Source: Clostridia bacterium
GTDB lineage: Bacteria > Bacillota > Clostridia > Oscillospirales > UBA644
Direction: 5' to 3'
Assembly: GCA_017440085.1 (NCBI GenBank)
Contig: JAFSHW010000038.1
Coordinates: 8,245-72,244 of the forward strand
DNA: 64,000 nucleotides
The position numbers were made by a program, and so were the translations under genes. The notes beneath the pieces were generated by a model. That model worked only from the letters and a program-made list of their open reading frames with translations, was not told the DNA's origin and did no database searches. How positions within the stretch are numbered: the stretch's first letter is position 1; each line of letters opens with the position of its first letter. This document shows, piece by piece, positions 336-57,964 of this stretch.

Positions 336-365
336 AATACCCATAAAACGAAAGGAAATTCAACA

Positions 366-821: not shown

Positions 822-945
822 AATAAATTTATTTATAGTAATGATGTTTGTGGGAAAACTTTCTTTTTTAGTGAAAAGAAAGTTTTCCCACACTAATATA
901 ATCCACATTTTCCGCATATTTTTGATTGAAGGAGAAATCATTTAT

Positions 946-18063: not shown

Positions 18064-18170
18064 TTTCAAATCATCCTTTTCTATACACAATTTCGTTAAT
18101 ATACTATCAAAAAGTGCCTTCTACTTATTATAAATGGGCGCAGTCCGCCCAAGGGCACTTATACAGGGTA

Positions 18171-31350: not shown

Positions 31351-31353
31351 AAA

Positions 31354-32070
31354 TTATTCCTTAGCAGGCTCAGAGGGGTCAGTAACCTTATATCCGTAGC
31401 CCCAAACGGTTTCGATTTTGAAATCCGTTGCGGCAGCGTCAAGCTTTTTGCGGATTCGCTTAACAAGGTCGTCCACAGCGCGGGTATCTCCGATATATTG
31501 GTAATCCCAAATATTTGTGAGAAGCTGGCTTCTGGTGAAAACTCTGTTTTTATTTGAAACCATAAAGAAAATGAAATCGTATTCCATTGCGGTAAGGTTG
31601 ATTTCCTCTTCCACTTCACCGCAAACCTTAACAACTCGGCGCTCTATGGGGAAAATTTTAATATCACGGCAGGAGTAAGTGTTTGCATTCTTATCGCCCT
31701 GCATACCGTCGATTCTGCGGAAAACGGCTTTAACTCTTGCAACCATTTCCCTGGGGGAGAAGGGCTTTGGAATATAATCGTCTGCACCCATTTCAATACC
31801 CAAAATTCTGTCAAGCTCCTCGTCACGGGCAGAAACGATAATAATAGGCACGTTTGCCTTTTTTCGAACCTCGTTACAAAGCTCGAAGCCGGACATTCCG
31901 GGCATCATAATATCAATAACCAACATATCGGGCATAGCGGCGTTGAACCCTGCAAGGGCGTCTTCACCGTTTTCAAATTCAGAAACCGTATAACCCTCTT
32001 TTTCAAGGTAGGAACGAATTATCTGACGTATGTTTTTTTCGTCGTCAACTACGTAAATTGTTTTTGGCAT
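31354..32070 (-). CDS. OmpR/PhoB-family response regulator
   Basis: Receiver domain (VVDDE, DIMMPGMSG, SARDE) and winged-helix C-terminus (ETVWGYGYK). Confidence 0.9.
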   Translation of the reverse strand: MPKTIYVVDDEKNIRQIIRSYLEKEGYTVSEFENGEDALAGFNAAMPDMLVIDIMMPGMSGFELCNEVRKKANVPIIIVSARDEELDRILGIEMGADDYIPKPFSPREMVARVKAVFRRIDGMQGDKNANTYSCRDIKIFPIERRVVKVCGEVEEEINLTAMEYDFIFFMVSNKNRVFTRSQLLTNIWDYQYIGDTRAVDDLVKRIRKKLDAAATDFKIETVWGYGYKVTDPSEPAKE

Positions 32071-36938: not shown

Positions 36939-38438
36939 ATGGCATTTGAAAATATTTTCCTTGAAGGGCTTCCCGATTACGAGGGCGGCGTTATCACAGA
37001 AGCAACGAAGGTAGGCCCCGGTCTGAGAGACGACAGAAAACCTGAAAAGTTGGAGCCTATTTTTAACGTAGGCGAAGAGTACACAGAAGATGAATTTAAG
37101 GAAAAGCTTAAAAATAACAGAGGTCATTGGGAAGTTTCCAAGATTGGGCTTTCCGGCCGACATTACCTTGGAAGAAGATGGGTAAGAGTTCGTTGGAACG
37201 AGGGCAAAATAACTGAGGTTGAATACCTTGACCCCGAACCAACTGAAAAAGAAGACAAGGCTTCCTGGATAAGAGTTGTCAAGGAAACTTCTGCGGAAGA
37301 ATTTAACGCTTACGTAAAGAAGCTTGTTGACCTTGGATTTGAAATCATTTACGAAAATCAGATTGAAAACAACCTTTTCCGCGAGCTTGTGAAAGGCGAA
37401 AAGCACGTTTACGCTTACTATATGGCGAATACGAAAACTGCACGAATCGTTGACGACAAAACAAGCATAAAATTGCCCGATTTCGGCTACGAATACGAAG
37501 CTAAGGAAGGCGAAAAAACGGAAATTTACCAGTACGGGCTTCGTTACGGCCATATGCAAAACGGACTTTCCTGCGACTGCGGTATGCTTTACATCGTAAA
37601 ATTGGCTGATAACTCACTTTTCATAGTTGACGGCGGAGAATACGAACAGAGCACGGACCAGGTTATTGAGCACGTTATGGACCTTTTCCATAAAATCACA
37701 AAAACTAAAAAAGGCGAAAAAATCCGCATTGCAGCGTATTACGTTACCCACGCCCACGACGACCATATGGATCTTTTCAGCAAGCTTATTAAGGTTTACC
37801 ACGAAGAACTTCAACTTGAAAGAGTTGTTTACAACTTCCCCTCTGATTGGCATTACCACCTTATGCCTCAGACTTACATTATGATCGACAGAATCTTGAA
37901 ATACTACCCTGACGTGAAGTATTTGCAGGCTCATACAGGGCAGAAATTCTCTCTTGCCAACACAGAATTTGAAGTCCTCCAGACCCTTGAAGACGGCTTG
38001 TTTGAACCCGGAATGAGGTGCGCAGAAAACAGATTCGGCGGCTTTAACGATACGTCTCTCGTTCTCAGACTCCATTTTGACGGCAAAAAATTCGACTTTT
38101 TGGGAGATATTGACGATGACGCGGAGCAGGTAATTCTTTCACATTACTCAAAAGAATACCTTAAAACCGATATGGTTCAGGTGGCACATCATTTGATAAA
38201 TAATTTGCAATATCTTTACGACGTATTGCAGCCCACCATAGCACTTATTCCCCAGCACTCAAACGATAGAACAAGGGAAAACCACCCTGCGATTAAACCG
38301 ATTAGACGCCACGTAAAAGAGGAAGATATTTATTTTGCTCACGATGGAACCGACGGCTTCAGAGTTGAAAACGGCGAAATAGTTCACTTCTTCCACACCG
38401 ATATGGTTGGCGGCGAATATGACGGCTCCGATACTTAA
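36939..38438 (+). CDS. MBL-fold metallo-hydrolase with an uncharacterised N-terminal domain of about 200 aa
   Basis: HxHxDH motif THAHDDHMD and a later VAHH motif. Confidence 0.6.
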   Translation: MAFENIFLEGLPDYEGGVITEATKVGPGLRDDRKPEKLEPIFNVGEEYTEDEFKEKLKNNRGHWEVSKIGLSGRHYLGRRWVRVRWNEGKITEVEYLDPEPTEKEDKASWIRVVKETSAEEFNAYVKKLVDLGFEIIYENQIENNLFRELVKGEKHVYAYYMANTKTARIVDDKTSIKLPDFGYEYEAKEGEKTEIYQYGLRYGHMQNGLSCDCGMLYIVKLADNSLFIVDGGEYEQSTDQVIEHVMDLFHKITKTKKGEKIRIAAYYVTHAHDDHMDLFSKLIKVYHEELQLERVVYNFPSDWHYHLMPQTYIMIDRILKYYPDVKYLQAHTGQKFSLANTEFEVLQTLEDGLFEPGMRCAENRFGGFNDTSLVLRLHFDGKKFDFLGDIDDDAEQVILSHYSKEYLKTDMVQVAHHLINNLQYLYDVLQPTIALIPQHSNDRTRENHPAIKPIRRHVKEEDIYFAHDGTDGFRVENGEIVHFFHTDMVGGEYDGSDT

Positions 38439-43231: not shown

Positions 43232-43330
43232 TTCTTTAGTCCTTTCCGTTTCGCACCGCAAAAGCGGTTTCTTTAAAAATCGCAAAGATGCTGCAGTCGG
43301 TAGTACGGCGCAACATCTTAACTACAATTT

Positions 43331-43359
43331 ATTATATAATATTCTACGAATCTTTTCAA
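43331..43359 (-). promoter_or_regulatory. sigma-A type promoter of the pur cluster
   Basis: On the minus strand: TTGAAA (43359-43354), 17 nt spacer, TATAAT (43336-43331). The leader of about 100 nt has the hairpin AAGATGTTGCG/TGCAGCATCTT (43285-43319) followed 4 nt later by a T-run. Confidence 0.55.
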
Positions 43360-43407
43360 TAGGTAAAGTGGTAAATTAACATTTTTTTCGCTTTTTACAT
43401 CTTTTCG

Positions 43408-44084: not shown

Positions 44085-44107
44085 GGTCGGCGGAAAAACC
44101 GCCGACC
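44085..44107 (-). terminator. rho-independent terminator ending the 12-kb ABC locus
   Basis: Stem ggtcggcgg / ccgccgacc with a 5-nt loop. A T-rich tract follows on the minus strand. Confidence 0.6.
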
Positions 44108-44132
44108 CATTGTTGTAAATTTATTACTAAAA

Positions 44133-45125
44133 TTAACCAACAAGACCGCTTCGTTCGATACCTTGCACGAAATATCTCTGTGCAAAAAGGAAAACGATAA
44201 GAAGAGGAGCGATCATCAGCAAAGAGCCTGTATCAAGAAGAGTCTGCTGCTGAAGAACATCTTCTACACCCTTAACAACGTTAAAGAGCGTATTTGAGAG
44301 AATCGTCATATTAGGCATAAGCATGCTGTTGTAGGTTGTATCCGTCCACTGCCAAGTGAAGGAGAAGAGGAATACTGTAATCATCATATTGAATGCGTTA
44401 GGAAGCATAATCAATACGAAAGTTTTGAAAGGACCTGCACCGTCAATATAAGCGGACTGCTCGAGTTCCTTAGGCATACCTCTGAAGAACTGTCTCATCA
44501 AGTAGATGTAAAGACCGTTTTTCAGACCAAGACCTGTAGCAGACATAATAGCCAAGGGCCAAAGTGTGTTAACAAGGTCAAGACCGCCGAAGAAGTATCT
44601 GAATGTGCTGTAAAGAGGAAGCATAATCGTCTGAGGTGGAATAATAAGAGACACGATAACGATTACGAAGAGAAGATTGCTGCCTTTGAATTTAAATCTT
44701 GCGAAACCGTAACCTGCAAGACAGCTTACGATAAGCTGGAAGATTGATACGACAAGCGACAACCAAATAGAGTTAATCAAAGCCGTCCAGTAATCCATAT
44801 TCATTACAGCTCTCTGAATGAAGTATGTTGAACCCTCACGAGGGAAAAACATAACCGTTTTGTCGGTAAGGTCGTTTGTAGACATAAAGGAAACGATGAT
44901 TTTAACCACGAAGGGGTAAAGAATCATAAAGCTGATACCGATGATGAGAACTGCTCTTACGATTGCCCAGCAAAATCTGCCGAAACCTGCAAGGGTAAGG
45001 TTCTTTCTCTTCCATCTATCCCAGTCAATTCCTTCAAATTTCTTAGGAGCTAATTTTTCAAGAAGCTTTTCAATAAAGTTTCTGTTATCTACGTGGACTT
45101 CGGACTCAAAATTTATCTGTTTCAT
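44133..45125 (-). CDS. carbohydrate ABC transporter permease (MalG-type), second pair
   Basis: 6-TM layout. EAA loop EQSAYIDGAGPFKTFVLIMLP. Confidence 0.8.
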   Translation of the reverse strand: MKQINFESEVHVDNRNFIEKLLEKLAPKKFEGIDWDRWKRKNLTLAGFGRFCWAIVRAVLIIGISFMILYPFVVKIIVSFMSTNDLTDKTVMFFPREGSTYFIQRAVMNMDYWTALINSIWLSLVVSIFQLIVSCLAGYGFARFKFKGSNLLFVIVIVSLIIPPQTIMLPLYSTFRYFFGGLDLVNTLWPLAIMSATGLGLKNGLYIYLMRQFFRGMPKELEQSAYIDGAGPFKTFVLIMLPNAFNMMITVFLFSFTWQWTDTTYNSMLMPNMTILSNTLFNVVKGVEDVLQQQTLLDTGSLLMIAPLLIVFLFAQRYFVQGIERSGLVG

Positions 45126-45139
45126 TTAAACTTTCCTCC

Positions 45140-46084
45140 TTAATCCTGGTAAATAACCATTCTGTTAATAATCAAGAATACAACTCCGACGAATACCAAT
45201 ACTACAGCCGTGTAAACCCAAGAAAGCGATGACGCTACGGCGTAGGTACTTGGGCTAGCCAATCTTTGCGCGATGAATTTTACCGCAAGGTTATCAGCTT
45301 TAAGGAACTGGTCGATAACTGTATAAATCGCATTAACGAGAATGAGGGGGCTGACGTAGGGGAAGGAAATTTTCCAGAAAACTTCCCAACCCGTTGCGCC
45401 TTCAACCTGTGCTGCTTCGTACATACTTGTGGAAATACCCTGAAGACCGGAAAGGAATACCAACATCTGAACACCGGAAGAGGTTATGATGGAGTAAAGA
45501 CTTTCGATGGCTGTAAGCACGATATTTGCAAGGTCTGCATTGTTAAGAGTCTGAAGAATCAGATTTGCGAATGATGCGTAGTTAAAGATGTTTGACGCAC
45601 CGGAAGCGGAACCGATTTCCATTTTTTCCGCAGACTGATAAACGTCCATCATAGAGCTCATATTTTCTACTTCTGCGATAATACCTGTGGAGATAATAAC
45701 GGGAACGAAGAAGATAACACGGGCAGCAGTCTTACCAAGGAAGTTCTGGTTAAGAATGTTAGCCATAAAGAATGCGAAAATAAGAATAATGGGAATCTGA
45801 ATGATAATACCTGAGGTGGATTCGATAACCGTTCTCAAAAAGTTTTCTCCGCCGAACAAAGCTTCGTAGTAGTTTTGCCAGCCGGCAAAGGTTGTTTTAA
45901 AGCCTTCGCTCGTAACTTCGATACTACTGAATGAATATTTGAGAGACTGAATAACAGCGGGAAGATAAATGCAAGCAAAACCTATGATGATAGGGAGAAC
46001 GAATATGTAGCCGTAAAGATTTTGTTTTCTTTCAAGAGAAAATCTTTGTCTCTTAGGCATTTTTTCAATTGTTACTTTACTCAT
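45140..46084 (-). CDS. sugar ABC transporter permease (MalF-type), second pair
   Basis: EAA loop YEAAQVEGATGWEVFWKISFP. There is a 4-nt ATGA overlap with the upstream gene. Confidence 0.8.
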   Translation of the reverse strand: MSKVTIEKMPKRQRFSLERKQNLYGYIFVLPIIIGFACIYLPAVIQSLKYSFSSIEVTSEGFKTTFAGWQNYYEALFGGENFLRTVIESTSGIIIQIPIILIFAFFMANILNQNFLGKTAARVIFFVPVIISTGIIAEVENMSSMMDVYQSAEKMEIGSASGASNIFNYASFANLILQTLNNADLANIVLTAIESLYSIITSSGVQMLVFLSGLQGISTSMYEAAQVEGATGWEVFWKISFPYVSPLILVNAIYTVIDQFLKADNLAVKFIAQRLASPSTYAVASSLSWVYTAVVLVFVGVVFLIINRMVIYQD

Positions 46085-48993
46085 TTTACATTCACCTCCA
46101 CATAACCTTTGGCAGATACTTGTGTACCGTCTTCAAGTTCCACGTCGAAATCGTTGTAGTTAACGATGAACTTAACGGAATTACCGTAAGTTGTAGCGTA
46201 AACTCCGCCAATATCAACCTTTTCAACGGAACCTACGTGGTAAGCTTCTAAGATCTCGTGGTTTGTAATGGGTTTGTTTGCCACTTTATTCATAAGATCG
46301 GAAACTTCTGCGTAGAGAGTAGCTGCTGTTTCAAGTGAGTTCTTATAGTTTACGGAATACCAATCCTGGAATACGTAATCAGTATTGCTGAGGATTCCGT
46401 TATCTGCACCCATCCAACGGAAGTATACGCCGCTACCTGTTTCAAGAAGCTGGAGAACTGCAGTTTCGTAGTCGCCGGACTTATTGAGAGGTTCGCTTGC
46501 GTAGTCTACGTAACCGTGAAGAACCATCTGAATGAAGGGGATTGCTTCTGTTGTAGACATATATTGGCTGGAGCCAACGGGAACGTTAAGAAGGTGGGTT
46601 GCATATTTCCAGGTATAGTCGTTACCTGTTTCAAAAATCATATCATAGCCGTCGAAAGTTTCGATAGCGCTGATGTGATGGTCAAGAGCCTGAGTACGGT
46701 TGATAATTCTACCGATTTTGTAGTTAGTATCAATAACTGAACCGATACCGCTGAGAGAAACCTGCTTGTTAGAAACAAGTTCTTCAAGGTCAGCCTTGAA
46801 GCCTGCTGCCATATCGGGAATCTTATCTGCAGAAACTACAGTCAGGTCAAAACCTGATTTCCAAGTTTCGCCTGTGGAGTAAAGTCTGCCGAGATTCTGA
46901 GCAACTGTCATATCAAGACGTCTTGCAGCATCCTGAGAGAAATTCATAGAGTCAAAAGCTTTATCTTTTACAACGTAAATGAGATTAGCGTCAGGATAGA
47001 AGCTGATTTCTTTACTCTGGAGGTATTCAGCAGCATCTTTGAGCTCTGAAGCGGAACCGAGAGCTGATACAAAGTCGACTTTATCGTAAATTGTATTGTA
47101 GTAGCCTTCGTTTGCCCAATAGAGGTATCTGAAATTGATATTTTCTACGCCTTTTTCAAGGAGAGCATCGGCGATTTCCTTAATCTGATTGTAAGTTGTA
47201 AGAGCTACAACGTGGTCTACGGGAATACCAACAACGGATTCTGTCTTATTGATAGCTCCGAGAAGGTCTACGTAGAAGGGAACTTCGGAATCAGACTTAA
47301 CAGTAGCGGGAAGAGCTTCTTTTTCGATGAGGTAATCTCTGTAGAAGTTAGCATAGTCAGCGTGTGTCCAGTCGCCTTCGTTGAAGAAGTAATCAACTGT
47401 GAATACTGCAATGTTTTCTTCTTTGGAAAGTACAGCACCGGAGCTGGAAGTACTGCTTGAAGAAGAACCGCCTATTTCAGTAGAAGAGGTTCCCTGACCG
47501 CCTGAATAAGTAAGGTAGCTTCTTTCAGAGTAAACGAAATCGTAGTTGATAGAAGTACCGGGGTTGTTGGAGGTATTGGAAGGTCTTGCAGTCGCGAAAG
47601 CCTGAGAGCCGCCGTTGGAAAGAATTGCAACCATACCACCCAATGAAGAACGGTCAAATGAAAGGAAAGGAGTTACAACCTGCTCTACGGGAGATTCCTG
47701 AACAGAAAGCTGGAAGGAGTCATCCAAGCCGTATACACGAGCTGTGAATGCGTCAGTTGTAAGGTTTCCTTTAGCGGGCATTATAGCGCCGGAACCGTCG
47801 GGAATGATAACGTAAGGTGTGATGTTATACATCTTGTTCGCCGTACCCGTAACCTTTTCGCCCTGTTCACCAACCATAACAGAACCGAAAGCTCTGTAAA
47901 GAGTAATCTTATAAAGCTTCTGTTTTTCGGGGGCAAGGATAAGATTTGAGTCAACAGTTACGCTGAGACCTTCTTCTGTAAGAGTAAGGTCAACGGGAAT
48001 TGTGTACAAAACTGCTCTGGAGGGACCGCTGTATTCAACTGCGTCCATTTCCTTTTTAAGCATCTCAGGAGTAAATCCTGCTGCTTCCATAGCTTCTTTA
48101 ACAAGAGTTTTCTGACGGTTGTTAAGATTTCTTGATATTCGCATGGGGAACATCTGAATTGTAGGATAGTCCTTAGCGTAACGCTCAATTTCTTCGAGCT
48201 CAAGCTCGTCAGGTTGTGTTTCTTTATAACAAACACCCAAGTTGGAGATGTGCTTTGCGCCACCGTCAACTTTTTCAAGACGACCGATTACCCAATCCCA
48301 AGTATCTATTGTAAGAACGGGAGGAACGAGGTCTGCATTTGCGTCGTTACCGATTGTGTAAATTACACGAATCGTATCATCATCCATCTTAACGATTTTC
48401 AATCTATTGACGTTGATACAATGATCCATTGCGTTAAATTCATAACGCTTGTTTGCAATATCGTAAGCTTCAACCGCAATGGGAGAAACTATGGGGTCAG
48501 TAACGTCTTCTTTAGCATTACCGTAGTTTGTGAATGCACTGGAAGTATCTGCAGGGTTAGAGTGGTAGATATTACCGGTTCTCTTATCCAAAACTGCGAT
48601 AGCACTCATATTTTCTTCGCCCTCTTCACGCATAAGGGTCATATAAAGTGAGTAATTATCGTTATCAAGGAGAAGAACCATATCGTCAAGACCCATTCTG
48701 AGACCGTTCATTACGGAACCCTGAGGACCGACTTCCTTATCTTTGTAGTCTTCGTGGACTACCCATTCGTGAGTAGTTTTAACGACTTCAAAGCCGTCTT
48801 CAATTACGGTAGTTTCCGTTGTAACATTTTCGGCAAGCATTTCACCGTCGCCGATAAGGCTGAGAATGTGAGCTTCTCTTTCTTCGTCTGTAATATTACT
48901 TGATTTATTATCCGTAGCTTTGCAGGAAGAGAAAGAAATGAGTGACGTGAGCATAATAGAAAGCAGCAGCACGTAAGAAATTATTTTTTTCAT
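46081..48993 (-). CDS. large (about 970 aa) extracytoplasmic lipoprotein of unknown function (DUF5696-like, from memory)
   Basis: ATG at 48993 gives MKKIISYVLLLSIMLTSLISFSSC (lipobox), and AGGAGG lies 12 nt upstream. The ORF track starts at 49017. No catalytic motif recognised by eye. Confidence 0.5.
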   Translation of the reverse strand: MKKIISYVLLLSIMLTSLISFSSCKATDNKSSNITDEEREAHILSLIGDGEMLAENVTTETTVIEDGFEVVKTTHEWVVHEDYKDKEVGPQGSVMNGLRMGLDDMVLLLDNDNYSLYMTLMREEGEENMSAIAVLDKRTGNIYHSNPADTSSAFTNYGNAKEDVTDPIVSPIAVEAYDIANKRYEFNAMDHCINVNRLKIVKMDDDTIRVIYTIGNDANADLVPPVLTIDTWDWVIGRLEKVDGGAKHISNLGVCYKETQPDELELEEIERYAKDYPTIQMFPMRISRNLNNRQKTLVKEAMEAAGFTPEMLKKEMDAVEYSGPSRAVLYTIPVDLTLTEEGLSVTVDSNLILAPEKQKLYKITLYRAFGSVMVGEQGEKVTGTANKMYNITPYVIIPDGSGAIMPAKGNLTTDAFTARVYGLDDSFQLSVQESPVEQVVTPFLSFDRSSLGGMVAILSNGGSQAFATARPSNTSNNPGTSINYDFVYSERSYLTYSGGQGTSSTEIGGSSSSSTSSSGAVLSKEENIAVFTVDYFFNEGDWTHADYANFYRDYLIEKEALPATVKSDSEVPFYVDLLGAINKTESVVGIPVDHVVALTTYNQIKEIADALLEKGVENINFRYLYWANEGYYNTIYDKVDFVSALGSASELKDAAEYLQSKEISFYPDANLIYVVKDKAFDSMNFSQDAARRLDMTVAQNLGRLYSTGETWKSGFDLTVVSADKIPDMAAGFKADLEELVSNKQVSLSGIGSVIDTNYKIGRIINRTQALDHHISAIETFDGYDMIFETGNDYTWKYATHLLNVPVGSSQYMSTTEAIPFIQMVLHGYVDYASEPLNKSGDYETAVLQLLETGSGVYFRWMGADNGILSNTDYVFQDWYSVNYKNSLETAATLYAEVSDLMNKVANKPITNHEILEAYHVGSVEKVDIGGVYATTYGNSVKFIVNYNDFDVELEDGTQVSAKGYVEVNVK

Positions 48994-49009
48994 TTTAAAC
49001 CACGGCCTC

Positions 49010-49693
49010 CTATTCATTAAGTCTGAAGCTTATTTCCGTATACAAGGATGAGATAAAACCAACAACCTGTGATACAAGGTAGAAAACAAGCACTGCAATA
49101 AAGATAATTACCAAAATACCTACAATTGAAAGAATTGCGGTAGCGATAGCTTTTGAAACTGAATACTGGTGTGTAACCATCATTCCGAGGAACACCATAC
49201 CGTAGCACCAAACAAAGCTGAAGCCAACTATGAATACGTAAATGCTTTCTTCTTCCAATGATACGAAGTTACTGATAGGTACCAAGAGGAAGTTGCAGAT
49301 AGTCATTGGCAACGTTGCAAAAGCTGTTGCGCAGAAGATGTCTTTAAGGCTTCCGTCACCGTCCATAAGAGAGGTGAAGCACCAGTTTGCGATGGTGAAC
49401 AAAAGGAATGGAGCTACTGCTTTGAAGACTTCCATAAATACGTTCAAATAGAGCTGTTCGCCGGTACTTTCAGTAAACAAGTAACCAGTGAGCTGTCTCT
49501 TAACGATGGAAGAAAATGCAAGCATAACCAAGAGGAAGATTGAACCGGAAACAGTTCTTCTTTTAGGGTCGTTTTTCAAATCGAAAAATCCGTCAATGGG
49601 GTGAGCAAGAATGTAAAAAGCGTATTTAAGACGTTTAAACATTTCTACTGTGCCCGCGCCGAATTTTTTAAGGCCGGAACTTATTGACTTCAT
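49010..49693 (-). CDS. Yip1-domain integral membrane protein
   Basis: HPIDGFFDLK followed by five TM helices. The start overlaps the stop of the NHL gene by 1 nt (TAATG). Confidence 0.6.
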   Translation of the reverse strand: MKSISSGLKKFGAGTVEMFKRLKYAFYILAHPIDGFFDLKNDPKRRTVSGSIFLLVMLAFSSIVKRQLTGYLFTESTGEQLYLNVFMEVFKAVAPFLLFTIANWCFTSLMDGDGSLKDIFCATAFATLPMTICNFLLVPISNFVSLEEESIYVFIVGFSFVWCYGMVFLGMMVTHQYSVSKAIATAILSIVGILVIIFIAVLVFYLVSQVVGFISSLYTEISFRLNE

Positions 49694-51321
49694 TATTTAG
49701 CACCCCTTTCACCATTCTTCTTTTTCTTGACTTTGGAAACTACGTAGAGAGCAACTATGCCAACCACTACTACGCCGATACCTGCAACGATGAAACCAAA
49801 GTTTTCGCTGAGGCTATCTTTTCTGAGTTCTTTGAAGGTCTTGGAATAGTAGGTTTTTTCGTTTGAATATTTGAAATATTCAAGAGCCTGTTCGTAACCT
49901 TCAAGGTCGGATTCTGCCATAGAAATTCTCATCTGAGCTTTTCCCAAGCCTGTGTATGCAATGTAGAGGTTAGAGTTGTAGTCAAGTACCTTCTGCCATT
50001 CTACGAGAGCTTCTTCATATCTGCCGTTTGCACTTGCGCTTGTGGCTTTATTAATTGTCCTTGCGTATTCCGTAATTTTGTAAACTGTGATAGTATCGTT
50101 ACCTGTATCGGAAACCACAATATCTTCACCGAAGAGGGCGATGGAAGCGGCTGTTTTAATACGGCCGAACTGGTTAGAGGAAGCGCCGCCTGCGATGTAG
50201 AGGAGGTTACCGTCTATATCGTAAGTGAAGAATCTACCCGTTTTAGCATCAAGGATTGAGTATCTGCCGGAATTTTCTTCAACTGCTACGTCAACCATCT
50301 GTGGAGGATTGAACATTGTAACTTCAAGGTCACCGATAGGTGAATACATACCGTTTCTTCTGAGAACGTCAGTACCGGAAGGACTGAGTTTCTGAACGGG
50401 AGCACCTGCACCGGAAACGCCTGTCGCGCCGTCGTCTGTAGTAACGTAATTTGATACCATAGCTTCAGCGTCAATTGTTGCAATAGTTGAATAAATGAAG
50501 CCTTTGCTGTCAATACAAATATTAGAGAATTCAGTAGGAACGTTTCTGATAAGAGTCTTTTTCTGTTCTTCGGAAGCGATAAGTCTCCAGAACCATTCGG
50601 TAGCATCGAAAGAAACTGCAGGTGCACCGAAGAAAGTACGGAATTCGCCGTCAGAAGAAATTTCAAGGAGACCTCTGTTTACGGAGTATGCAACTACCTG
50701 CATAGCGCCTGTTCTGTCAACTGTAAGTTTCAAGGGTTTGAAAACGTAGTTGTCAAGAACTGAGGGGCTGATTCCCTGGTAAACGTTGTATACAAGACCG
50801 TCTTCATCACAAATTACGATTCTGCGGTTTTCCGTATCGCAAACGTAAATCATACCGTCATTTGTAACAAAAATACCTTCAGGTTTATTTAAGATATTTT
50901 TGTTAAGGGTAGCAACGATGGGATCTGCCTTAGGGTCTCCGTTACCGTCGATTACCCATTGGTAAAGTTCGGGAATTTTATATTCCGCGGAATCTTTAAG
51001 ATTTTTAACTGTTTTGAGAAGATTGTAGTCTTCATCAAGAATAAGGATTTGGCTGTTGCCCTTATCAACTACATAGATTTTACCGTTTCTTGCGAAAAGG
51101 TCAACGGGTTCAAAGTTGTTCAAAATGCCGAAATCATCTTTTGAAAAAACCTTTTCCGCTTTGTAAGCTACGGGAGCCTTAACAGAAGCACCGTAATAGT
51201 CATATATGTAGTTATCTGTGATTTCGGTATTCATAGGAAGGGCAAAAGAGGTCACAGCTGTGGAAGCAAGCATAACGACGAGCATTACCAAGCAAAGCAA
51301 TGATTTAACGTGATTTTTCAT
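49693..51321 (-). CDS. NHL-repeat beta-propeller protein with TPR-like segment and C-terminal TM anchor
   Basis: Signal peptide. NHL-like blades (PEGIFVTNDGMIYVCDTENRRIVICDEDG; NGKIYVVDKGNSQILILD; DIVVSDTGNDTITVY). TPR-like RYEEALVEWQKVLDYNSN. TM helix plus a KKKK tail. Confidence 0.7.
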   Translation of the reverse strand: MKNHVKSLLCLVMLVVMLASTAVTSFALPMNTEITDNYIYDYYGASVKAPVAYKAEKVFSKDDFGILNNFEPVDLFARNGKIYVVDKGNSQILILDEDYNLLKTVKNLKDSAEYKIPELYQWVIDGNGDPKADPIVATLNKNILNKPEGIFVTNDGMIYVCDTENRRIVICDEDGLVYNVYQGISPSVLDNYVFKPLKLTVDRTGAMQVVAYSVNRGLLEISSDGEFRTFFGAPAVSFDATEWFWRLIASEEQKKTLIRNVPTEFSNICIDSKGFIYSTIATIDAEAMVSNYVTTDDGATGVSGAGAPVQKLSPSGTDVLRRNGMYSPIGDLEVTMFNPPQMVDVAVEENSGRYSILDAKTGRFFTYDIDGNLLYIAGGASSNQFGRIKTAASIALFGEDIVVSDTGNDTITVYKITEYARTINKATSASANGRYEEALVEWQKVLDYNSNLYIAYTGLGKAQMRISMAESDLEGYEQALEYFKYSNEKTYYSKTFKELRKDSLSENFGFIVAGIGVVVVGIVALYVVSKVKKKKNGERGAK

Positions 51322-51339
51322 CTCATTCTGCTCCTTTCT

Positions 51340-52314
51340 TTAGTCTTTCATACCGGATGTAGCCATTGTTTCGAGAATGTTACTCTGTGTAATAAGGAAG
51401 GTTATTACAGGAACAATCATCATTACTACTGAAATTGCCATCGAAACGCCCTGACGAGCAATACCTGCGGCAGCAATCTGGCCAAGTGCGTAGTTAAGAG
51501 TTTTAAGTTCTTCTCTGTAAATATAAATCGTGGAGCCCATATTCCAATATTCCTGAACTGCGAAAACGATAAGTGTCATCCACGCGGGTTTCAAGTTAGG
51601 CATAACGATCTGGAAGAAGAGTCTGAATTCGCCTGTACCGTCGATTCGAGCAGCTTCAAGAACTGCATCGGGGAACTGGTCTACGAAGTTTTTAACGAGG
51701 TAAACTGCCATTGAAGAACCGATAGCAGGAACGAGAACAGACCAGTAAGTATCAATCCAACCGAAAGCAGCCATCGTCATATAGTTAGCGATACCTGCTG
51801 CAGGGGCTGCAAACATAAGTGAGAATGAGATAACACTCATAATCATATTCTTACCGGGGAACTGTCTCTTTGAAAGGGGGTACGAAGCCATCGTACCGAA
51901 GATAACTCTCAAGGTTGTACCAACGGCTGTGATAAATACCGTATTAAACAAGTATTTAGACATAGGAACCAAGGAGTTCGACATAATGTTAATCAAGTCA
52001 ACATAGTTCTTTCCTGTGGGATTCTGAACTATCAAGGTTGGGGGGAATAGGAACAACTCATACAAAGGTTTGAGTGAGTTACTGATAGCGAAGATAAGGG
52101 GGAATGCCATGAACACACCGCCTATGAGGAGGAACAGGAACATAAACAAGTCGCCGCCGAAGCTTCTGTTAACTCTTGACTTAAAGAGTTTCTTTTTCTT
52201 ATAGTGAATTTCTCGTCCTTCAGCGTCGTACTTTGGTCTTTTCTTAAATATACCGACCATTTCCTGCTCTTGAGCAACGCCGTCAACGATTATAACGTTT
52301 TTCTTTTTAGCCAT
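51340..52314 (-). CDS. carbohydrate ABC transporter permease (MalG-type), first pair
   Basis: EAA loop LEAARIDGTGEFRLFFQIVMP. AGGAGGGG RBS. Confidence 0.8.
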   Translation of the reverse strand: MAKKKNVIIVDGVAQEQEMVGIFKKRPKYDAEGREIHYKKKKLFKSRVNRSFGGDLFMFLFLLIGGVFMAFPLIFAISNSLKPLYELFLFPPTLIVQNPTGKNYVDLINIMSNSLVPMSKYLFNTVFITAVGTTLRVIFGTMASYPLSKRQFPGKNMIMSVISFSLMFAAPAAGIANYMTMAAFGWIDTYWSVLVPAIGSSMAVYLVKNFVDQFPDAVLEAARIDGTGEFRLFFQIVMPNLKPAWMTLIVFAVQEYWNMGSTIYIYREELKTLNYALGQIAAAGIARQGVSMAISVVMMIVPVITFLITQSNILETMATSGMKD

Positions 52315-52328
52315 AAATTATCCCCTCC

Positions 52329-53252
52329 TTACTTACCAATTCTGCCAAGCACGAACTGGAATACTTTATTGGCGGAAATAGAGATTACGAAGAGAATCGT
52401 AGCAATCGCGCAGGCATAACCCATTTCAAAACGAGTGCCGCCGTAGTCATCCAAGTGGTGCATAATTGTGTGAAGTGCGTAGCCGTTTGTGGGGAAACCG
52501 AAAACAGCTGTGATAACTGAACCGATACCAAAAGAACCGGAAACGTTAAGAACCGCACCGAAGAGCAACTGACCTCTCATTGAAGGGAGAGTGATGAAGT
52601 AAAGCTCCTGCCATCTGTTCTTAATACCGTCAACAGCGCCTGCTTCGTAAAGTGTGCGGTCAACAGTCTGAAGACCTGCGATAAACGTAAGGAACGTGGT
52701 ACCGAGAGCCTGCCAAAGAACGATGAATACGCAAACTACGAACATCCAAGTTTCATCAGTAAGCCAAATGATAGGTTCGGAGATGATACCGAGGTTCAAA
52801 AGAGCACCGTTGATGTAGCCGTAGCTGTCGCCGGAGAACATAAGCTGCCAAACGTAAGCGAAACCGCCTGAAAGTGAGGGAGCGTAGAAAAGAAGTGTCA
52901 AGAAAGCACGTGGCTTCGGTGGTACTTCGTTAATGAGCCAAGCGAATCCGAAACACATAATATAGGAAAGAGGACCTGTAATAAGTGCCAAAATAAACGT
53001 ATTCTGCAAAGCCAAGGAGAAAATGTCGTCGTTAAGGAACAACTTCTGGTAGTTTGCTATCCCAACAAAGTCAGGGAATTCAAGCATATTAAAGTTTGTA
53101 AGACTGATAAACAAAGACGTAAATACGGGAAGGATTGTAAATATAGTAAACACTACAAGGAACGGACCAAGGAATACTACAACGTCCAAGTTTTCGAATC
53201 TTTTTGAGCTTTTGATTTTATTGACTTTCATTGTGTCATTTTTACTTTTCAT
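52329..53252 (-). CDS. sugar ABC transporter permease (MalF-type), first pair
   Basis: EAA loop YEAGAVDGIKNRWQELYFITLP. GGAGGAGGGG RBS. Confidence 0.8.
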   Translation of the reverse strand: MKSKNDTMKVNKIKSSKRFENLDVVVFLGPFLVVFTIFTILPVFTSLFISLTNFNMLEFPDFVGIANYQKLFLNDDIFSLALQNTFILALITGPLSYIMCFGFAWLINEVPPKPRAFLTLLFYAPSLSGGFAYVWQLMFSGDSYGYINGALLNLGIISEPIIWLTDETWMFVVCVFIVLWQALGTTFLTFIAGLQTVDRTLYEAGAVDGIKNRWQELYFITLPSMRGQLLFGAVLNVSGSFGIGSVITAVFGFPTNGYALHTIMHHLDDYGGTRFEMGYACAIATILFVISISANKVFQFVLGRIGK

Positions 53253-53272
53253 TATTTATTCCCCTCCTCCGA

Positions 53273-56158
53273 TTAGTCTGTGATGTAAGGAAGTCCAAGT
53301 TCTGCACGCTTGTATTCAAGTTCGTCGTTGATTGCGGAGATGTAGTCGAGAATTGTTTCACGAACATCCTTGTTGTCAACAACAACGTCGTTGAATGCGA
53401 AAGTCTGGTAACGTGTTACCTGATAGCTTCCGATATACTGCGGGTAACCAACAGCAACGTCAAGCTGAGCGAGGAGAGCTTCAAGTTCTGTTGCTTTCCA
53501 AGGCATTGCTGACATAGCTTCGATGTTAGCAGTGTTGTAACGAGCTGCAGTACCAAGAATAGATTCGATTTCTTTACCGAATTCAATCTGAGCGTCTGCA
53601 CCTGTCCACCATTTCAAGAATTCCCAAGCAGAATCGGGATCTTTAGCTCCGGACATCATTACGCTTCCTACGTAGTTAGCAATAACAGTGTTGTCGATAG
53701 TTCCATCTTCTTTTTCAACACCGGGAATGGTTGTGAAGGACCAGAGACCTTTAATTTCAGGAGCAAATACGGAAATCTGGTTGTAGAATTCGTAACCCTG
53801 AACACCGATAGGCATTTCGTTAAATCTGAAACGGTTGGCGAAGTTAAAGGAAATAGGAATCTTATAGCTTGTGTACAAGTCTGTATGCTGGATAAAGGTC
53901 TGAATTGAAAGCTCGTCGTCCAAGTTAACCTGAGAACCGCCGTTCTTATAGAGAGTACCGCCGTTCTGGTAAAGGAGAGTCAGGTAATCCGGTGGAGCAA
54001 AGTCCATATACTGCTTCTGGAGAGTAGCAATAATGTCGTAAGCTTCATCCCACGTTTTGGGAAGTTCAAGACCAAGGTCTGTCATAGTATCTTCGCGGTA
54101 GAAGAGAACGCTGTATGTAACAGTTTCGGGAAGGGCATAGTAGTGAGTGCCTTCTTCGCCGCCCCAATCTACGAATACTGATTCAAAAGCGGATTTGTGG
54201 AAGGATTTCTGAACTTCTTTGAAATCGCTGAATGTATCGAGAGGATAGAGAGCATTACGAGCTGCGTAGTTAACGATGTTTTCAACAGTAAGGTTCATTG
54301 CAACGTCAGGGCCAACGCCTGCAAGAACTGAAGGAAGAAGTGATGCTGCCGGAACGAGCTGAAGGTCAACGTCGATTTCATAATCAGGAATAAAGCTTCT
54401 GTCTACGATCTGTCTGAGGATCTGAGCCTGGTCGCGGGCACTTGTCATCCATACTGTAGTCTTCTTATCGTAAGAAACTTCTTTTACAGCAGAGATAGCG
54501 TTAACGTCGGTAAAGAAGGATGAGAAGAACATTGAAACCTGATGGCCCAAGTTAGCAAAGAATCCTTTTTCAGCCTTGGGAGTTGCAAAGTCTGGTTCAG
54601 CCACGAGAATGTAGTCCATTTCAAGGGGCTGTTCTCTTGCTGTGATTACCCAAGAACCCAAAGTACCGATGTTATTTTTAAATGTAGCATAATATGTAGC
54701 TATCTTTTCGGGGTCTTCGTGCATCTTATAAAGATGTTCGATGATTGTGTAAAGCTGAGCTGTCTGAGAACCTGTCTCGCCGAGGAGGTTGAGAAGCTCT
54801 GTATATATTTTGGTAAGGGTGTCAGCCTGTGCTTTAAGGTCCGCAATAACTTCGGGGATTTCGTTTTCAAAATCGTAGTCACGATACTGGTCGGGAGTCT
54901 GACCCATAAGCATTACAAACTTACGGTTGTCTATATTCAACTTTTCAATAACTGCTTCAACAGCATTGATAATATCAGACATATCGCCAAGAACTGCTTT
55001 AACTCTGAGAGTGTTTACACCTGCATTAAAATGGAAGAGTACGGGTTCGTTGTATTCGTCCATAGGTGTAACCATCTGCCAGTCAGAATCATAGTTGAAG
55101 CGAACGTTGGATGCTACTTCGTAGGGAAGTTCGCCGTTAACGGAAAATTCACGGCTGGAGAATGCACCACTGTTTACATTCTGTCTTGCACGGATAATAA
55201 GTTTATAGTAACCGTCTGCAGGAACATCTACTTCGTATTCAACCCACTGACCTGCCGTCTTCCAAGTAGCGGTACCGTTGGTACTGCCGAGGATGTTTAT
55301 TTTTGTAACACCTGCGGAAGCGGGGCTAGTAGCAGCGGAAGCCTTATCGGTACCGCCGAACAATGTGGAGTCTGATTTTGCAGAAGGACGTTCAGCTTCG
55401 ACTTGAGCAATAAGCTGGTCGCCGCCGAAGTTCATACCATCATATTCAGAGTATTCAGAACTACCGGAGAGCCACATTGCGGAAATAGCAAGAGGTTCTC
55501 TTACAGACTGAATTGTGATTGTGTTTTCACCCTTCTTCAAATAGAACTGAAGAGCGCCGGAATAGCTACCGGTTGAATCCTGGAAGAAAGCATCTTCAAT
55601 CCAAACGGGTTCTTCAATCTGAGAAGGTCTGATCTGGTTGCCTGAAGCGTCTTCGGTAAAATAGTTCTCTATATCTGAACGATCGACTACGTTATCAACG
55701 TAACGACGGTCCAAAGAAGCAGCGTTTGCTTCTGTATAGGGAACTTCACCGTTAACGTAAATAGCTCTTTCAATAGCAGCACCTTTACCCTCAATGGGAT
55801 AATAGTCTGCGTAGATTGAATAGAGACCTTCACTGGGAACATTAACTGTGTAAGTTACGGAGCTCGCCTCTGTTGTAATAAGGCAGTTAGCAACGCCGTC
55901 AACGGTACCTGTGGTAACGTCGGCAGTAGCGTCGGTATAACCGTGAATATCGATTTCAACCTTATCTTTAGCTGTAGTAGCTCTGAGGTAAGTTTGTAAA
56001 TATTCACCGTAAGAACCTTCCTTATAAACAGGAACGAAAGCGGTTAACGCGGATTCTTCCGTAATAGATGACATCGCTGAAAAACCTACGGCAAACAACT
56101 GAATAATCATTGCCACCATAAGTATAACAGCCGTACATTTACTCTTGCGAATCTGCAC
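53273..56158 (-). CDS. 961-aa extracellular solute-binding protein with two N-terminal CBM-like beta-sandwich modules and an uncleaved-looking signal anchor
   Basis: GTG start with GGAAGGTG RBS. Paired modules: YTVNVPSEGLYSIYADYYPIEGKGAAIERAIYVNGEVPY and EYEVDVPADGYYKLIIRARQNVNSGAFSSREFSVNGELPY. The C-terminal roughly 450 aa resemble a family-1 SBP. Confidence 0.7.
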   Translation of the reverse strand: MQIRKSKCTAVILMVAMIIQLFAVGFSAMSSITEESALTAFVPVYKEGSYGEYLQTYLRATTAKDKVEIDIHGYTDATADVTTGTVDGVANCLITTEASSVTYTVNVPSEGLYSIYADYYPIEGKGAAIERAIYVNGEVPYTEANAASLDRRYVDNVVDRSDIENYFTEDASGNQIRPSQIEEPVWIEDAFFQDSTGSYSGALQFYLKKGENTITIQSVREPLAISAMWLSGSSEYSEYDGMNFGGDQLIAQVEAERPSAKSDSTLFGGTDKASAATSPASAGVTKINILGSTNGTATWKTAGQWVEYEVDVPADGYYKLIIRARQNVNSGAFSSREFSVNGELPYEVASNVRFNYDSDWQMVTPMDEYNEPVLFHFNAGVNTLRVKAVLGDMSDIINAVEAVIEKLNIDNRKFVMLMGQTPDQYRDYDFENEIPEVIADLKAQADTLTKIYTELLNLLGETGSQTAQLYTIIEHLYKMHEDPEKIATYYATFKNNIGTLGSWVITAREQPLEMDYILVAEPDFATPKAEKGFFANLGHQVSMFFSSFFTDVNAISAVKEVSYDKKTTVWMTSARDQAQILRQIVDRSFIPDYEIDVDLQLVPAASLLPSVLAGVGPDVAMNLTVENIVNYAARNALYPLDTFSDFKEVQKSFHKSAFESVFVDWGGEEGTHYYALPETVTYSVLFYREDTMTDLGLELPKTWDEAYDIIATLQKQYMDFAPPDYLTLLYQNGGTLYKNGGSQVNLDDELSIQTFIQHTDLYTSYKIPISFNFANRFRFNEMPIGVQGYEFYNQISVFAPEIKGLWSFTTIPGVEKEDGTIDNTVIANYVGSVMMSGAKDPDSAWEFLKWWTGADAQIEFGKEIESILGTAARYNTANIEAMSAMPWKATELEALLAQLDVAVGYPQYIGSYQVTRYQTFAFNDVVVDNKDVRETILDYISAINDELEYKRAELGLPYITD

Positions 56159-56257
56159 TTGTGAACACCTTCCTTAAATAAAAAGTCTAAACTGTATTCC
56201 CCTTTTCAGGGGGCAAAAAGAGCGCAACACAAAGGAAAGTTCGGTTGCCTCTTATAT

Positions 56258-56286
56258 ATTATAATACTTTTCCACTCAAATGTCAA
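56258..56286 (-). promoter_or_regulatory. sigma-A type promoter of the ABC locus
   Basis: On the minus strand: TTGACA (56286-56281), 17 nt spacer, TATAAT (56263-56258). Leader of about 100 nt. Confidence 0.55.
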
Positions 56287-56587
56287 GCAGAAGTTCTATT
56301 TTTTCCGAATTTAAAATGTCACACTTTTTGAGTATTTTGGGCAGTTTAACCAAAAAATTATTCACAAACAACATAAAATTCTAAGCTTTTCCACATCAAA
56401 AATGAAGAAGTGTTATGCATACCTTACAAAACCATTTCCATATATGGACTTCGAGACCATTTTTGGCGAGATTTTGGCTATATATAGTATCACTACTATG
56501 TTTTTGACAAAAGAGTGTTGTGCAAATCTACCAAAGTTTCGCGCTTTTTTAATTATGCGCAATTCAAATGGTATTTTTTACACTTTT

Positions 56588-57964
56588 TCAACATTTATCT
56601 CCGTATTTTTCGGTAATAAGCTCTGCCGCAAGGTAAATATTTCCGCATCCGAGAGTGATAAAAAGGTCTCCGGGCTGAGCCATTTCCTTGACTCTTTGTG
56701 CAATATGCTCAAAATCCGGCTGATATTCCCCGTTTGGAAGCAATTCAACCAAATCCTCTGCAAAGACGTTATATTCATCGTTGGTTTCACGTGCGGCGTA
56801 AATGGGAGAAACAATTACGTGGTCAACCTGAGAAAGGACTTGAGCAAATTCATTCATAAGCATTTTCGTTCTGGAGAAGGTATGGGGCTGATGAATCGCA
56901 ATCACTCGCTTGAAGCCCAACTCCCTTGCAGTTTTAAAGGTCACGTCATATGCGTCGGGGTGATGTGCGTAATCATCTGCAATTACGGCACCGTTCACGG
57001 TGCAATGATATTCAAATCTGCGCTTAGTTCCTGCAAAATCGTGAAGTCCTTTGCTTACAGCTTCGGGGGAAACCCCCAATGCTATTGCAGCTGCGGCGGC
57101 AGCCAATGCGTTTTTCACGTTATGAGCGCCGGGAACGGAAAGGGAAACGGTGCAAAATTTTTCACCTTCGTACATAATTGTAAAATTGTACAATCCGTTT
57201 ACCGAAGAAATGTCATAAGCTGTTACCGAACCTTTTACAATTCCAAATGAAACTTTTTTACCCTGGAAATCGTCTATCATTTTGAGAGAGTTTTCACACT
57301 CGGAGTTGTAGACCACAGTGCCACCTTCTTTGGTGTTACGCAAATACTTTTTAAAGGAACCGATAAGATTATCGAGAGTTTTGAAGTATTCCATATGGTC
57401 TTTGGAAATATTCAGAATGACGGAAACGAAAGGTCTGAAGTTAAGGAATGAATCCTTATATTCACAGCTTTCAAAAACGCAGAATTTTTCTTCTTTACCT
57501 ATTATATAGGAAGAATTCAGCTGTTTTACGCTTCCGCCGATGATTGCGCTGTAATCGAAACCGCTTGCGGCAAGGATTGAAGCAATCATACCTGAAGTTG
57601 TTGTTTTGCCGTGTGTGCCTGCGATTCCAACGGGGAAATCATATCCGTCAAGAATCATACCGAGAAGCTCAGCCCTTCTGTGGACGGGAATTCCCGCCTG
57701 CAAAGCGTAAGCAATTTCGGAGTTTGATTCGGAAACAGCATCTGTTCTGATTATAACTTGAGGGTTTTCGTTTTTCACGTTATCCTCAGAATGCCCGATA
57801 TAAACTTTTATGCCAAGGGATTCAAGGTGCGCCGTGGTAGCAGAGCTCTGCATATCAGAGCCGCTTACGGAATAGCCCCTGTTAAAGAGAATTTCGGCAA
57901 GACTGCTCATAGAAGAGCCTCCGATTCCTGCCAGATAAACTTTTTTTACACCGTCAAGAGTCAC
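56588..57964 (-). CDS. murC: UDP-N-acetylmuramate--L-alanine ligase
   Basis: GIGGSSMSSLAE, GTHGKTTTSGM and the Mur ligase C-terminal domain. 458 aa. Confidence 0.9.
   Translation of the reverse strand: MTLDGVKKVYLAGIGGSSMSSLAEILFNRGYSVSGSDMQSSATTAHLESLGIKVYIGHSEDNVKNENPQVIIRTDAVSESNSEIAYALQAGIPVHRRAELLGMILDGYDFPVGIAGTHGKTTTSGMIASILAASGFDYSAIIGGSVKQLNSSYIIGKEEKFCVFESCEYKDSFLNFRPFVSVILNISKDHMEYFKTLDNLIGSFKKYLRNTKEGGTVVYNSECENSLKMIDDFQGKKVSFGIVKGSVTAYDISSVNGLYNFTIMYEGEKFCTVSLSVPGAHNVKNALAAAAAAIALGVSPEAVSKGLHDFAGTKRRFEYHCTVNGAVIADDYAHHPDAYDVTFKTARELGFKRVIAIHQPHTFSRTKMLMNEFAQVLSQVDHVIVSPIYAARETNDEYNVFAEDLVELLPNGEYQPDFEHIAQRVKEMAQPGDLFITLGCGNIYLAAELITEKYGDKC

Follow-up and report, generated by a model that had tools for sequence, protein, structure and literature searches.

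What kind of system is encoded by an operon that joins one giant binding protein to two complete pairs of membrane permeases, sets three further genes between the pairs, and carries neither an ATPase nor a regulator? The locus in question lies on the minus strand of a 64-kb stretch of DNA from a Clostridia bacterium (contig JAFSHW010000038.1 of assembly GCA_017440085.1; this whole stretch is called the window below), where an open reading frame (ORF) scan of the region found eight co-directional ORFs spanning 44133-56158 between a promoter and a hairpin, tightly packed and placed as the initial annotation of this DNA had them. In order of transcription they encode a giant solute-binding protein (SBP), the permeases P1 and P2, an NHL/TPR protein, a Yip1-domain membrane protein, a lipoprotein of the DUF5696 family and the permeases P3 and P4 (Table 1). 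The answer that we favour, with a confidence that is about even, is that the locus is one copy of an ancient and integrated Firmicute cassette for the uptake of complex carbohydrates, in which two cores of the carbohydrate uptake transporter-1 (CUT1) type of ATP-binding cassette (ABC) importer would work with a fixed set of accessory proteins and share an orphan ATPase, and whose DUF5696 lipoprotein would not cut glycans in this lineage.

The first support for this answer comes from how widely the cassette is distributed. At least 571 of the genomes scanned, taken one per GTDB species, contain relatives of the DUF5696 lipoprotein. Clustered at 50% identity, its homologues with E ≤ 1e-3 make up 3624 clusters, and those with E ≤ 1e-30 make up 1122. 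Classification of the ORFs of the best 80 species loci, with hidden Markov models (HMMs) made from five cassettes, placed the protein within this cassette in all 80, and recovered the order SBP-P1-P2-NHL-Yip1-DUF5696-P3-P4 wherever the contig was long enough; roughly 60 complete loci, from different classes and with unrelated flanks, agree in this order. Homologues at 69%, 48%, 37%, 29% and 26% identity likewise stand within this set and order of eight genes, again with unrelated flanks, the neighbourhoods looked up including those of Bacillus sp. JCM 19034 and Cohnella thailandensis. Carriers comprise Paenibacillus, Cohnella, Gracilibacillus, Lederbergia, Herbinix, Lachnospiraceae, Halanaerobiales and many metagenome-assembled genomes of Clostridia. 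Moreover, divergence runs in parallel across the eight proteins, with the P3/P4 pair conserved to the same degree as P1/P2. An order that is kept from Clostridia to Paenibacillus and Cohnella points to an old integrated module rather than to the peculiar local composite described initially. A recent insertion of the three embedded genes, which the initial annotation had named as an outcome that would refute its reading, was rejected, since every examined relative has all three at the same places; this counts in favour of that reading.

Conserved as it is, the cassette has an inner division. A reduced form consists of an NHL-Yip1 fusion, DUF5696, P3, P4 and an ordinary binding protein of 426-458 amino acids (aa), and lies among rhamnosidases, an apiosidase-like enzyme, pectate lyase or GH130. 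Because this reduced core exists alone, module B, made of NHL/Yip1, DUF5696 and P3/P4, can be told from module A, made of the giant SBP and P1/P2. Two reduced cassettes without the giant SBP and P1/P2 (L067, 7337-14572; L085, 6595-13514) sit among GH78/GH106 rhamnosidases, an apiosidase-like enzyme, pectate lyase and fucose isomerase, which is a rhamnogalacturonan-type context, and in a single genome (GCA_900198705.1; loci L089 and L090) a full cassette flanked by small SBPs on either side occurs together with a reduced core that adjoins genes for GH130, DUF1861 and an FAD-oxidoreductase. Among the relatives in general, the carbohydrate-active enzymes (CAZymes) encoded nearby are of mannan type (GH26 in 7 loci, GH2 mannosidase in 3, GH113), of xylan type (GH10 with GH43) or of rhamnogalacturonan type (GH78/GH106), and LacI or AraC regulators also occur near the cassette. 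Such enzymes point to plant polysaccharides, although to different ones from species to species. With surrounding enzymes that change around a constant cassette, the latter looks like a general platform and not like a substrate-specific unit.

Many full cassettes carry in addition an ordinary small binding protein of 440-520 aa. By Pfam, 22 of 62 loci have it directly before the giant SBP and about five directly behind P4, and a family-specific search found it near 46 loci in total. Since this second binding protein accompanies most relatives, the "two pores, one binding protein" arrangement pointed out in the initial annotation is best seen as a derived state of the lineage of the window.

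Do the parts themselves fit a CUT1 importer? The C-terminal half of the giant SBP matches SBP_bac_1 in Pfam (E 1e-16, 62 bits against a cut-off of 26) and also SBP_bac_8, and its N-terminal half gives sub-threshold matches to CBM_6, CBM_35 and Golvesin_C. The AlphaFold2 (AF2) model of the protein (predicted local distance difference test, pLDDT, 87) resembles oligosaccharide-binding proteins in Foldseek, with E values of 1e-21 to 1e-19 and target-normalised template-modelling scores (TM-scores) of 0.7-0.8, and a profile of the N-terminal part finds carbohydrate-binding modules (CBMs) of family 35 in the PDB at E 4e-7 to 9e-5. Sub-threshold CBM_35 or Golvesin_C matches return in 12-18 of 33 orthologues, and those to CBM_6 recur too. 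Every relative of the giant SBP whose context was inspected sits within a cassette; the exact sequence is also on record in an 11-kb ENA contig. As for the permeases, all four have both a BPD_transp_1 match and an EAA-x3-G loop (Pfam and inspection of the sequence), and were typed as UgpA/MalF or UgpE/MalG by their best NCBIfam matches. The two BPD_transp_1 subunits with EAA loop that characterise a CUT1 importer are therefore present twice, as P1/P2 and as P3/P4, which bears out the two complete permease pairs described before, and the SBP_bac_1/MalE-like partner is represented by the giant SBP. A recent duplication of one pair was considered and rejected because the pairs share 22-31% identity over parts of their length, as distant paralogues do.

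Between the pairs, Pfam, AF2, Foldseek and profile searches confirm three accessory proteins of extracytoplasmic or membrane location, next to the one giant CBM-bearing SBP, as had been proposed. The NHL/TPR protein starts with a signal peptide, and its C-terminal part holds, by hydropathy, a transmembrane anchor (aa 503-533) and behind it a Lys-rich tail; it matches NHL (E 3e-11, 43.4 bits against a cut-off of 20) and TPR_11 (E 2e-5) in Pfam, and its profile finds designed NHL propellers (4e-42), TRIM71 (2e-27) and the PknD sensor domain (5e-27), the last being the closest solved bacterial NHL propeller, together with consensus TPR proteins. The Yip1 protein covers 171 of the 173 profile positions of PF04893 (E 9e-17, 62 bits against a cut-off of 28.6). 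In 11 related loci the two are fused into a single polypeptide that keeps both domains, and their topology is compatible with such a fusion: NHL outside, transmembrane anchor, Lys-rich tail inside and the N-terminus of Yip1 inside. A precedent is offered by YknW, a bacterial Yip1 protein that modulates the assembly of an ABC-transporter complex (PMC4887032).

What, then, does the DUF5696 lipoprotein do? It matches PF18952 at E 2e-128 (Pfam), the whole protein is under purifying selection, and its signal peptide ends in the lipobox SFSSC (MKKIISYVLLLSIMLTSLISFSSC), with lipidation predicted; the lipobox Cys is present in the majority consensus of the homologue alignment. An exact-sequence look-up found no record of it. 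The likely start is the ATG at 48993, as annotated, with an AGGAGG 12 nt upstream, and the residue numbers used here refer to the longest ORF (46081-49017, 978 aa). In the AF2 model (pLDDT 82, predicted template-modelling score, pTM, 0.82) an N-terminal β-sandwich is followed by a (β/α)8 barrel and a C-terminal β-sandwich, which is the three-domain architecture of GH129 and GH101. Foldseek accordingly lists ZgGH129 (5opq, E 3e-27), NagBb (5wzn, E 5e-20) and GH101 (about 1e-13), and then GH36 and GH31. In sequence, the GH129/GH101 members of the PDB give weak profile matches (E 1e-4) over partial regions at about 10% identity, hhalign aligns NagBb with a probability of 95-97% over 129 columns, and NagBb-like GH129 fragments bear precomputed PF18952 matches. 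As modelled, the DUF5696 protein is a glycosidase-fold lipoprotein, so the earlier statement that the locus holds no recognisable glycoside hydrolase is true at the level of Pfam names only.

Whether this fold still cuts in the lineage of the window depends in our reading on a single residue. The nucleophile of NagBb is D435, after barrel strand 4 and within the motif AYLDVF (its numbering was verified by counting residues in the retrieved fragment), and in DUF5696 the loop after the topologically equivalent strand carries the motif [DNH]-[ST]-[DN]-[YF], which includes position 765. By manual motif comparison, this position is the best candidate for the GH129 nucleophile. It is Asp in 53 of 53 Asp-type relatives, and Asn or, rarely, Ser in all 36 loci of two separate clades, one of them being that of the window and the other only about 26% identical to it. 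Almost all other conserved residues stay unchanged across the clades, including D407, D432, R774, N799, Q830, H834, N845 and E859, and position 765 is the only one that separates Asp-type from Asn-type clades. The split is linked to the small SBP, which is found nearby in 46 of the 53 Asp-type loci and beside the cassette in none of the 36 Asn/Ser-type loci, where a more sensitive HMM search returned only two partial matches, each more than 7 kb from the cassette. In a neighbour-joining tree the sister of each Asn clade is of Asp type and lacks a small SBP (L026 and L083), which suggests that the same sequence of events took place twice. Since Asp765 has been exchanged for Asn here and no small SBP lies beside the cassette in either clade, the DUF5696 lipoprotein may bind rather than cut. 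The key residue is probably lost in the copy of the window, and most likely, as the best inference from these alignments, the DUF5696 protein of this lineage holds a glycan at the membrane without cutting it.

Several points weigh against this reading or against the model as a whole. The equivalence of position 765 with D435 rests on the manual motif comparison and on predicted secondary structure, with the hhalign alignment ending at barrel strand 3; the downstream fragment alone gives only a spurious 8-column match, and the GH129 homologues used are themselves fragments. There is also no conserved acid 30-45 residues after position 765, the place of the acid/base in GH129: N799 is invariant there, E796 and D800 are variable, and the invariant E859 lies about 95 residues downstream. 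As an invariant acid is missing from that place, the Asp-type proteins, too, may be something other than classical retaining glycosidases. Furthermore, the correlation between Asp or Asn and the small SBP amounts to only two evolutionary events, read from a distance tree. Finally, the neighbouring CAZymes differ between species and none is next to the cassette of the window, and no substrate can be assigned.

It is possible, if doubtful, that the lipoprotein is an active surface glycosidase here too, by means of residues other than 765, and that it trims the glycan captured by the giant SBP, with two different products entering the two pores, in keeping with the capture, processing and dual-import scheme of the initial annotation. 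Its GH129/GH101-like fold in a high-confidence model, the purifying selection on the whole protein, the invariance of D407, D432 and E859 across all clades and the presence of an Asp at 763, two residues upstream, in the window protein and some close relatives would all agree with such an activity. However, D763 gives way to Asn or Ser even in relatives that are 68-72% identical, the otherwise invariant Asp765 was changed to Asn twice and at the sole position that separates the clades, and Asp to Asn is the inactivating substitution in the GH129/GH101 crystal entries 8rzk (D486N) and 5a58 (D764N). The processing role once suggested for the lipoprotein is doubtful in the window copy, which has Asn where 53 of 53 relatives have an invariant Asp.

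If the non-cutting reading is followed, how could the cassette work? In module A, the membrane-anchored giant SBP would hold its two CBM35-like sandwiches on the helical stalk above the MalE-like domain and feed P1/P2. Module B would be a membrane complex in which the NHL/TPR and Yip1 proteins serve as scaffold for the DUF5696 lipoprotein and P3/P4, with the lipoprotein handling glycan at the membrane surface. In this lineage P3/P4 would receive their substrate from the DUF5696 lipoprotein, from the giant SBP or from an orphan lipoprotein encoded elsewhere in the window. Both pores would be energised by a shared ATPase of the MsmX/MsmK type, whose gene would lie outside the operon. A bolder version of this scheme, which we consider rather unlikely, would make the cassette a new class of type-I ABC importer that depends on accessory proteins: a Yip1/NHL-TPR scaffold would couple a glycosidase-fold lipoprotein directly to a permease pair, and in lineages such as this one, after two independent losses of the key Asp, the lipoprotein would have become a non-catalytic receptor in place of the SBP of the second pore.

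As to the ATPase, the initial annotation was right that the operon comes with none and with no regulator: neither a Walker A nor an LSGGQ motif was found in the open frames of the 64-kb window, and no regulator is found among the genes that flank the operon. Related loci likewise have no nucleotide-binding subunit beside them, the few ABC_tran matches among their neighbours being mostly exporter-type proteins. This is ordinary for Firmicute sugar importers and not the peculiarity it was taken for. Orphan multitask ATPases of the MsmX/MsmK type are established for Firmicute CUT1 importers (PMC7658222); as they are the norm in this phylum, the absent gene is no argument against CUT1 membership, and by analogy the orphan ATPase expected earlier would be a fitting energiser.

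The claim of only one binding protein holds for the operon and fails for the window. The orphan lipoprotein mentioned above, encoded by a plus-strand ORF far from the operon, is matched over its full length by the small-SBP HMM (E 9e-37), its best individual matches being the cassette SBPs of L029 and L030, which belong to the Asp-type sister group. It has no Pfam match and no sequence match in the PDB, and no relatives of it were found in a metagenome scan. The ORF is present on 10 contigs of the same species, with the same neighbours in the three shown, and has a gene for an M18 aminopeptidase on one side and a ribonuclease/barstar pair on the other. To judge from these matches, it may be a displaced and diverged second binding protein, the partner of P3/P4. 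Elsewhere in the window, two minus-strand ORFs without family assignment (28747-29868 and 27818-28720) lie downstream of a histidine kinase/response regulator pair (29989-32070, minus strand); the 373-aa member of the two shows a weak lipoprotein-signal match and a weak match to the small-SBP HMM (3e-5).

The surroundings of the operon in the window bring up an improbable alternative, namely that the cassette serves the maintenance or sensing of the cell envelope, for example by capturing and recycling the cell's own wall glycopolymers or by signalling through the sensor-like NHL domain, instead of the import of nutrients. The operon does lie between murC/spoVG and pur genes, under an exact consensus promoter and with no regulator or CAZyme nearby, the PknD sensor domain is the closest bacterial NHL propeller among those solved, and sortase genes are found upstream of the cassette in eight related Clostridia loci. 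In cultured Bacilli and many Clostridia, however, the cassette is placed amid plant-polysaccharide hydrolases and LacI/AraC regulators, and a binding domain that resembles oligosaccharide SBPs, together with CBM35-like modules, fits the capture of external glycans. That the locus is a chance neighbourhood of two ABC importers and three genes with no relation to one another, and no functional unit, is highly improbable. For it there are the distant paralogy of the permease pairs and the occurrence of module B alone; against it stand the shared order of roughly 60 complete loci, whose carriers belong to different classes and whose flanks are unrelated, the overlapping start and stop codons, the NHL-Yip1 fusions of some relatives, the parallel divergence of all eight proteins, and the place of each giant SBP relative of inspected context within a cassette.

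Table 1. Features of the cassette and of the related orphan gene, in window coordinates
Feature	Position (nt)	Residues	Strand	Basis or remark
Promoter, sigma-70-type, TTGACA-17 nt-TATAAT	56258-56286		-	12/12 matches; about 95 nt upstream of the GTG start
Giant solute-binding protein, 961 aa, GTG start	53273-56158		-	Pfam, AF2, Foldseek
N-terminal signal anchor of the giant SBP		2-29		
CBM35/CBM6-like β-sandwich 1 of the giant SBP	about 55463-55981	60-232	-	
CBM35/CBM6-like β-sandwich 2 of the giant SBP	about 54992-55414	249-389	-	
Four-helix stalk of the giant SBP	54635-54982	393-508	-	
MalE-like binding domain of the giant SBP	53300-54622	513-953	-	
Permease P1, UgpA/MalF-type, EAA loop LYEAGAVDG	52329-53252		-	Pfam, NCBIfam
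Permease P2, UgpE/MalG-type, EAA loop LEAARIDG	51340-52314		-	Pfam, NCBIfam
NHL β-propeller and TPR protein, extracytoplasmic, 542 aa	49693-51321		-	Pfam, profile against PDB, hydropathy
Yip1-domain membrane protein, 227 aa, about 5 transmembrane segments	49010-49693		-	Start overlaps NHL stop (TAATG)
DUF5696 lipoprotein, GH129/GH101-like fold (predicted)	46081-48993		-	Pfam PF18952, AF2, Foldseek; longest ORF from 49017
Codon for Asn765 of DUF5696	46723-46725	765 (757 counted from ATG 48993)	-	
Permease P3, UgpA/MalF-type, EAA loop MYEAAQVEG	45140-46084		-	Start overlaps DUF5696 stop (ATGA)
Permease P4, UgpE/MalG-type, EAA loop LEQSAYIDG	44133-45125		-	Pfam, NCBIfam
G+C-rich hairpin, 9 pairs (8 G-C), likely terminator	44085-44107		.	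Between P4 stop and yigZ start
Orphan lipoprotein, lipobox LSAC, small-SBP family	25050-26489		+	17.6 kb from the operon

The layout of the operon is that of a compact unit, with intergenic gaps of 20, 14, 18, -1 (TAATG), -8 (or +16 from 48993), -4 (ATGA) and 14 nt in order. The signals at its two ends had been described as a near-consensus promoter and a terminator. The former turns out to be an exact consensus and is the top-scoring promoter-like site of the region, where such sites number 32 against 25.9 ± 5.4 expected, that is, the chance level; the other promoter-like and terminator-like sites of the region are at chance level or below. The hairpin at the other end is present and is the strongest of the region, with an imperfect T-run on the minus strand (TGTGGTTTT), and in view of this weak T-run a read-through into yigZ is possible. 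Both flanks are housekeeping in nature, with a murC-type ligase gene and spoVG on one side, and yigZ/UPF0029 followed by purE/F/M/N on the other; no CAZyme gene stands next to the cassette in this lineage. The G+C content of the operon is the same as that of its surroundings, and a megablast of the 12.4-kb locus against plasmids had no match, leaving no sign of a mobile origin. A plus-strand ORF of 282 aa (56402-57250), tried as a divergent regulator, was rejected: it overlaps the murC-type gene on the opposite strand, has no family match and is probably not a gene.

Some further observations concern variants of the cassette and the rest of the window. In the second Asn-type clade (L035, L036, L039, L041, L043, L056) the giant SBP reaches about 1100 aa and the NHL protein about 600-620 aa, and a divergent fused ABC exporter of about 600 aa (ABC_membrane plus ABC_tran) is encoded upstream of the giant SBP. 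In the window, a GxGYxYP-family putative glycoside hydrolase (35167-36807, plus strand) is the only other carbohydrate-related gene noticed, and is followed by an ORF of 499 aa without family match (36939-38438, plus strand). A 3546-aa ORF (7450-18090, minus strand) contains 16 Spy0128/FctA-like isopeptide domains and two DUF7601 domains, and looks like a giant pilin-type adhesin. A search of the whole 64-kb window for Rfam families, riboswitches and leaders among them, gave none at gathering thresholds. A purine riboswitch might be expected upstream of purEFMN; the purE leader (about 43285-43400) has no Rfam match and holds an 11/12 promoter-like site at 43359-43331, upstream of these genes.

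The cassette is widespread, occurring among others in Clostridia of gut and rumen and in Paenibacillaceae of soil, both of them major degraders of plant fibre. Working out its mode of action would give a function to a large DUF family and to bacterial Yip1 proteins, would clarify how Gram-positive bacteria couple the handling of glycans at their surface to ABC import, and would put to the test the recruitment of a glycosidase fold for the part of a transporter receptor. The Asp/Asn split is a natural experiment in this respect, and cultured carriers such as Paenibacillus lautus NBRC 15380 and Cohnella thailandensis DSM 25241 are at hand.

How does the cassette compare with what is known? A literature search on the DUF5696/PF18952 family and on the gene combination found no paper, in line with the initial view that the locus matches no characterised system; a broader one on GH129 and lipoproteins turned up unrelated work only. 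Each part of it is of a known kind; the fixed combination of a double permease pair, a stalked and CBM-bearing SBP, Yip1/NHL proteins and a glycosidase-fold lipoprotein is, as far as we know or could find, undescribed for ABC importers. The nearest relatives are the CUT1 importers, such as MalEFGK2 of Escherichia coli and those energised by an orphan ATPase, that is, AraNPQ, YesOPQ and MdxEFG of Bacillus subtilis with MsmX, or the Streptococcus pneumoniae systems with MsmK. The cassette shares with them the MalE-like domain, MalF/MalG-type pairs with EAA loops and the lack of an ATPase in the operon, but differs in having two permease pairs, an SBP of about twice the size with CBM35-like modules and a stalk, and three fixed accessory genes between the pairs. 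To Gram-positive polysaccharide utilisation loci, in which an ABC importer goes with surface proteins that bind and cut glycans, the cassette is comparable in that many of its relatives are found amid GH26, GH113, GH2, GH10, GH43, GH78 or GH106 enzymes and LacI/AraC regulators. It differs in that the cassette is invariant whereas the enzymes change, and the window copy has no adjoining CAZyme or regulator.

For the accessory proteins, the closest parallel to Yip1 is the YknWXYZ system of B. subtilis, in which a bacterial Yip1 membrane protein is encoded with an ABC transporter and presumably acts on it (PMC4887032). YknYZ, however, is a MacB-type exporter that works with a membrane-fusion protein, whereas Yip1 in the cassette accompanies type-I importer permeases and forms a pair or a fusion with a protein that has an NHL/TPR ectodomain. 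The DUF5696 lipoprotein has the three-domain fold with central (β/α)8 barrel of GH129, represented by the α-N-acetylgalactosaminidase NagBb of Bifidobacterium bifidum and the 3,6-anhydro-D-galactosidase ZgGH129 of Zobellia, and of the GH101 endo-α-N-acetylgalactosaminidases. It differs from them in its low identity, its predicted lipid anchor, its constant association with ABC permeases, a canonical Asp/Glu pair that was not located, and the Asn at 765. Chitinase-like lectins are catalytically inactive binding proteins with a glycosidase fold. By analogy, the DUF5696 protein of the window lineage would be a comparable case, an enzyme fold kept under selection with its key acid replaced, and its link to an ABC importer would be new.

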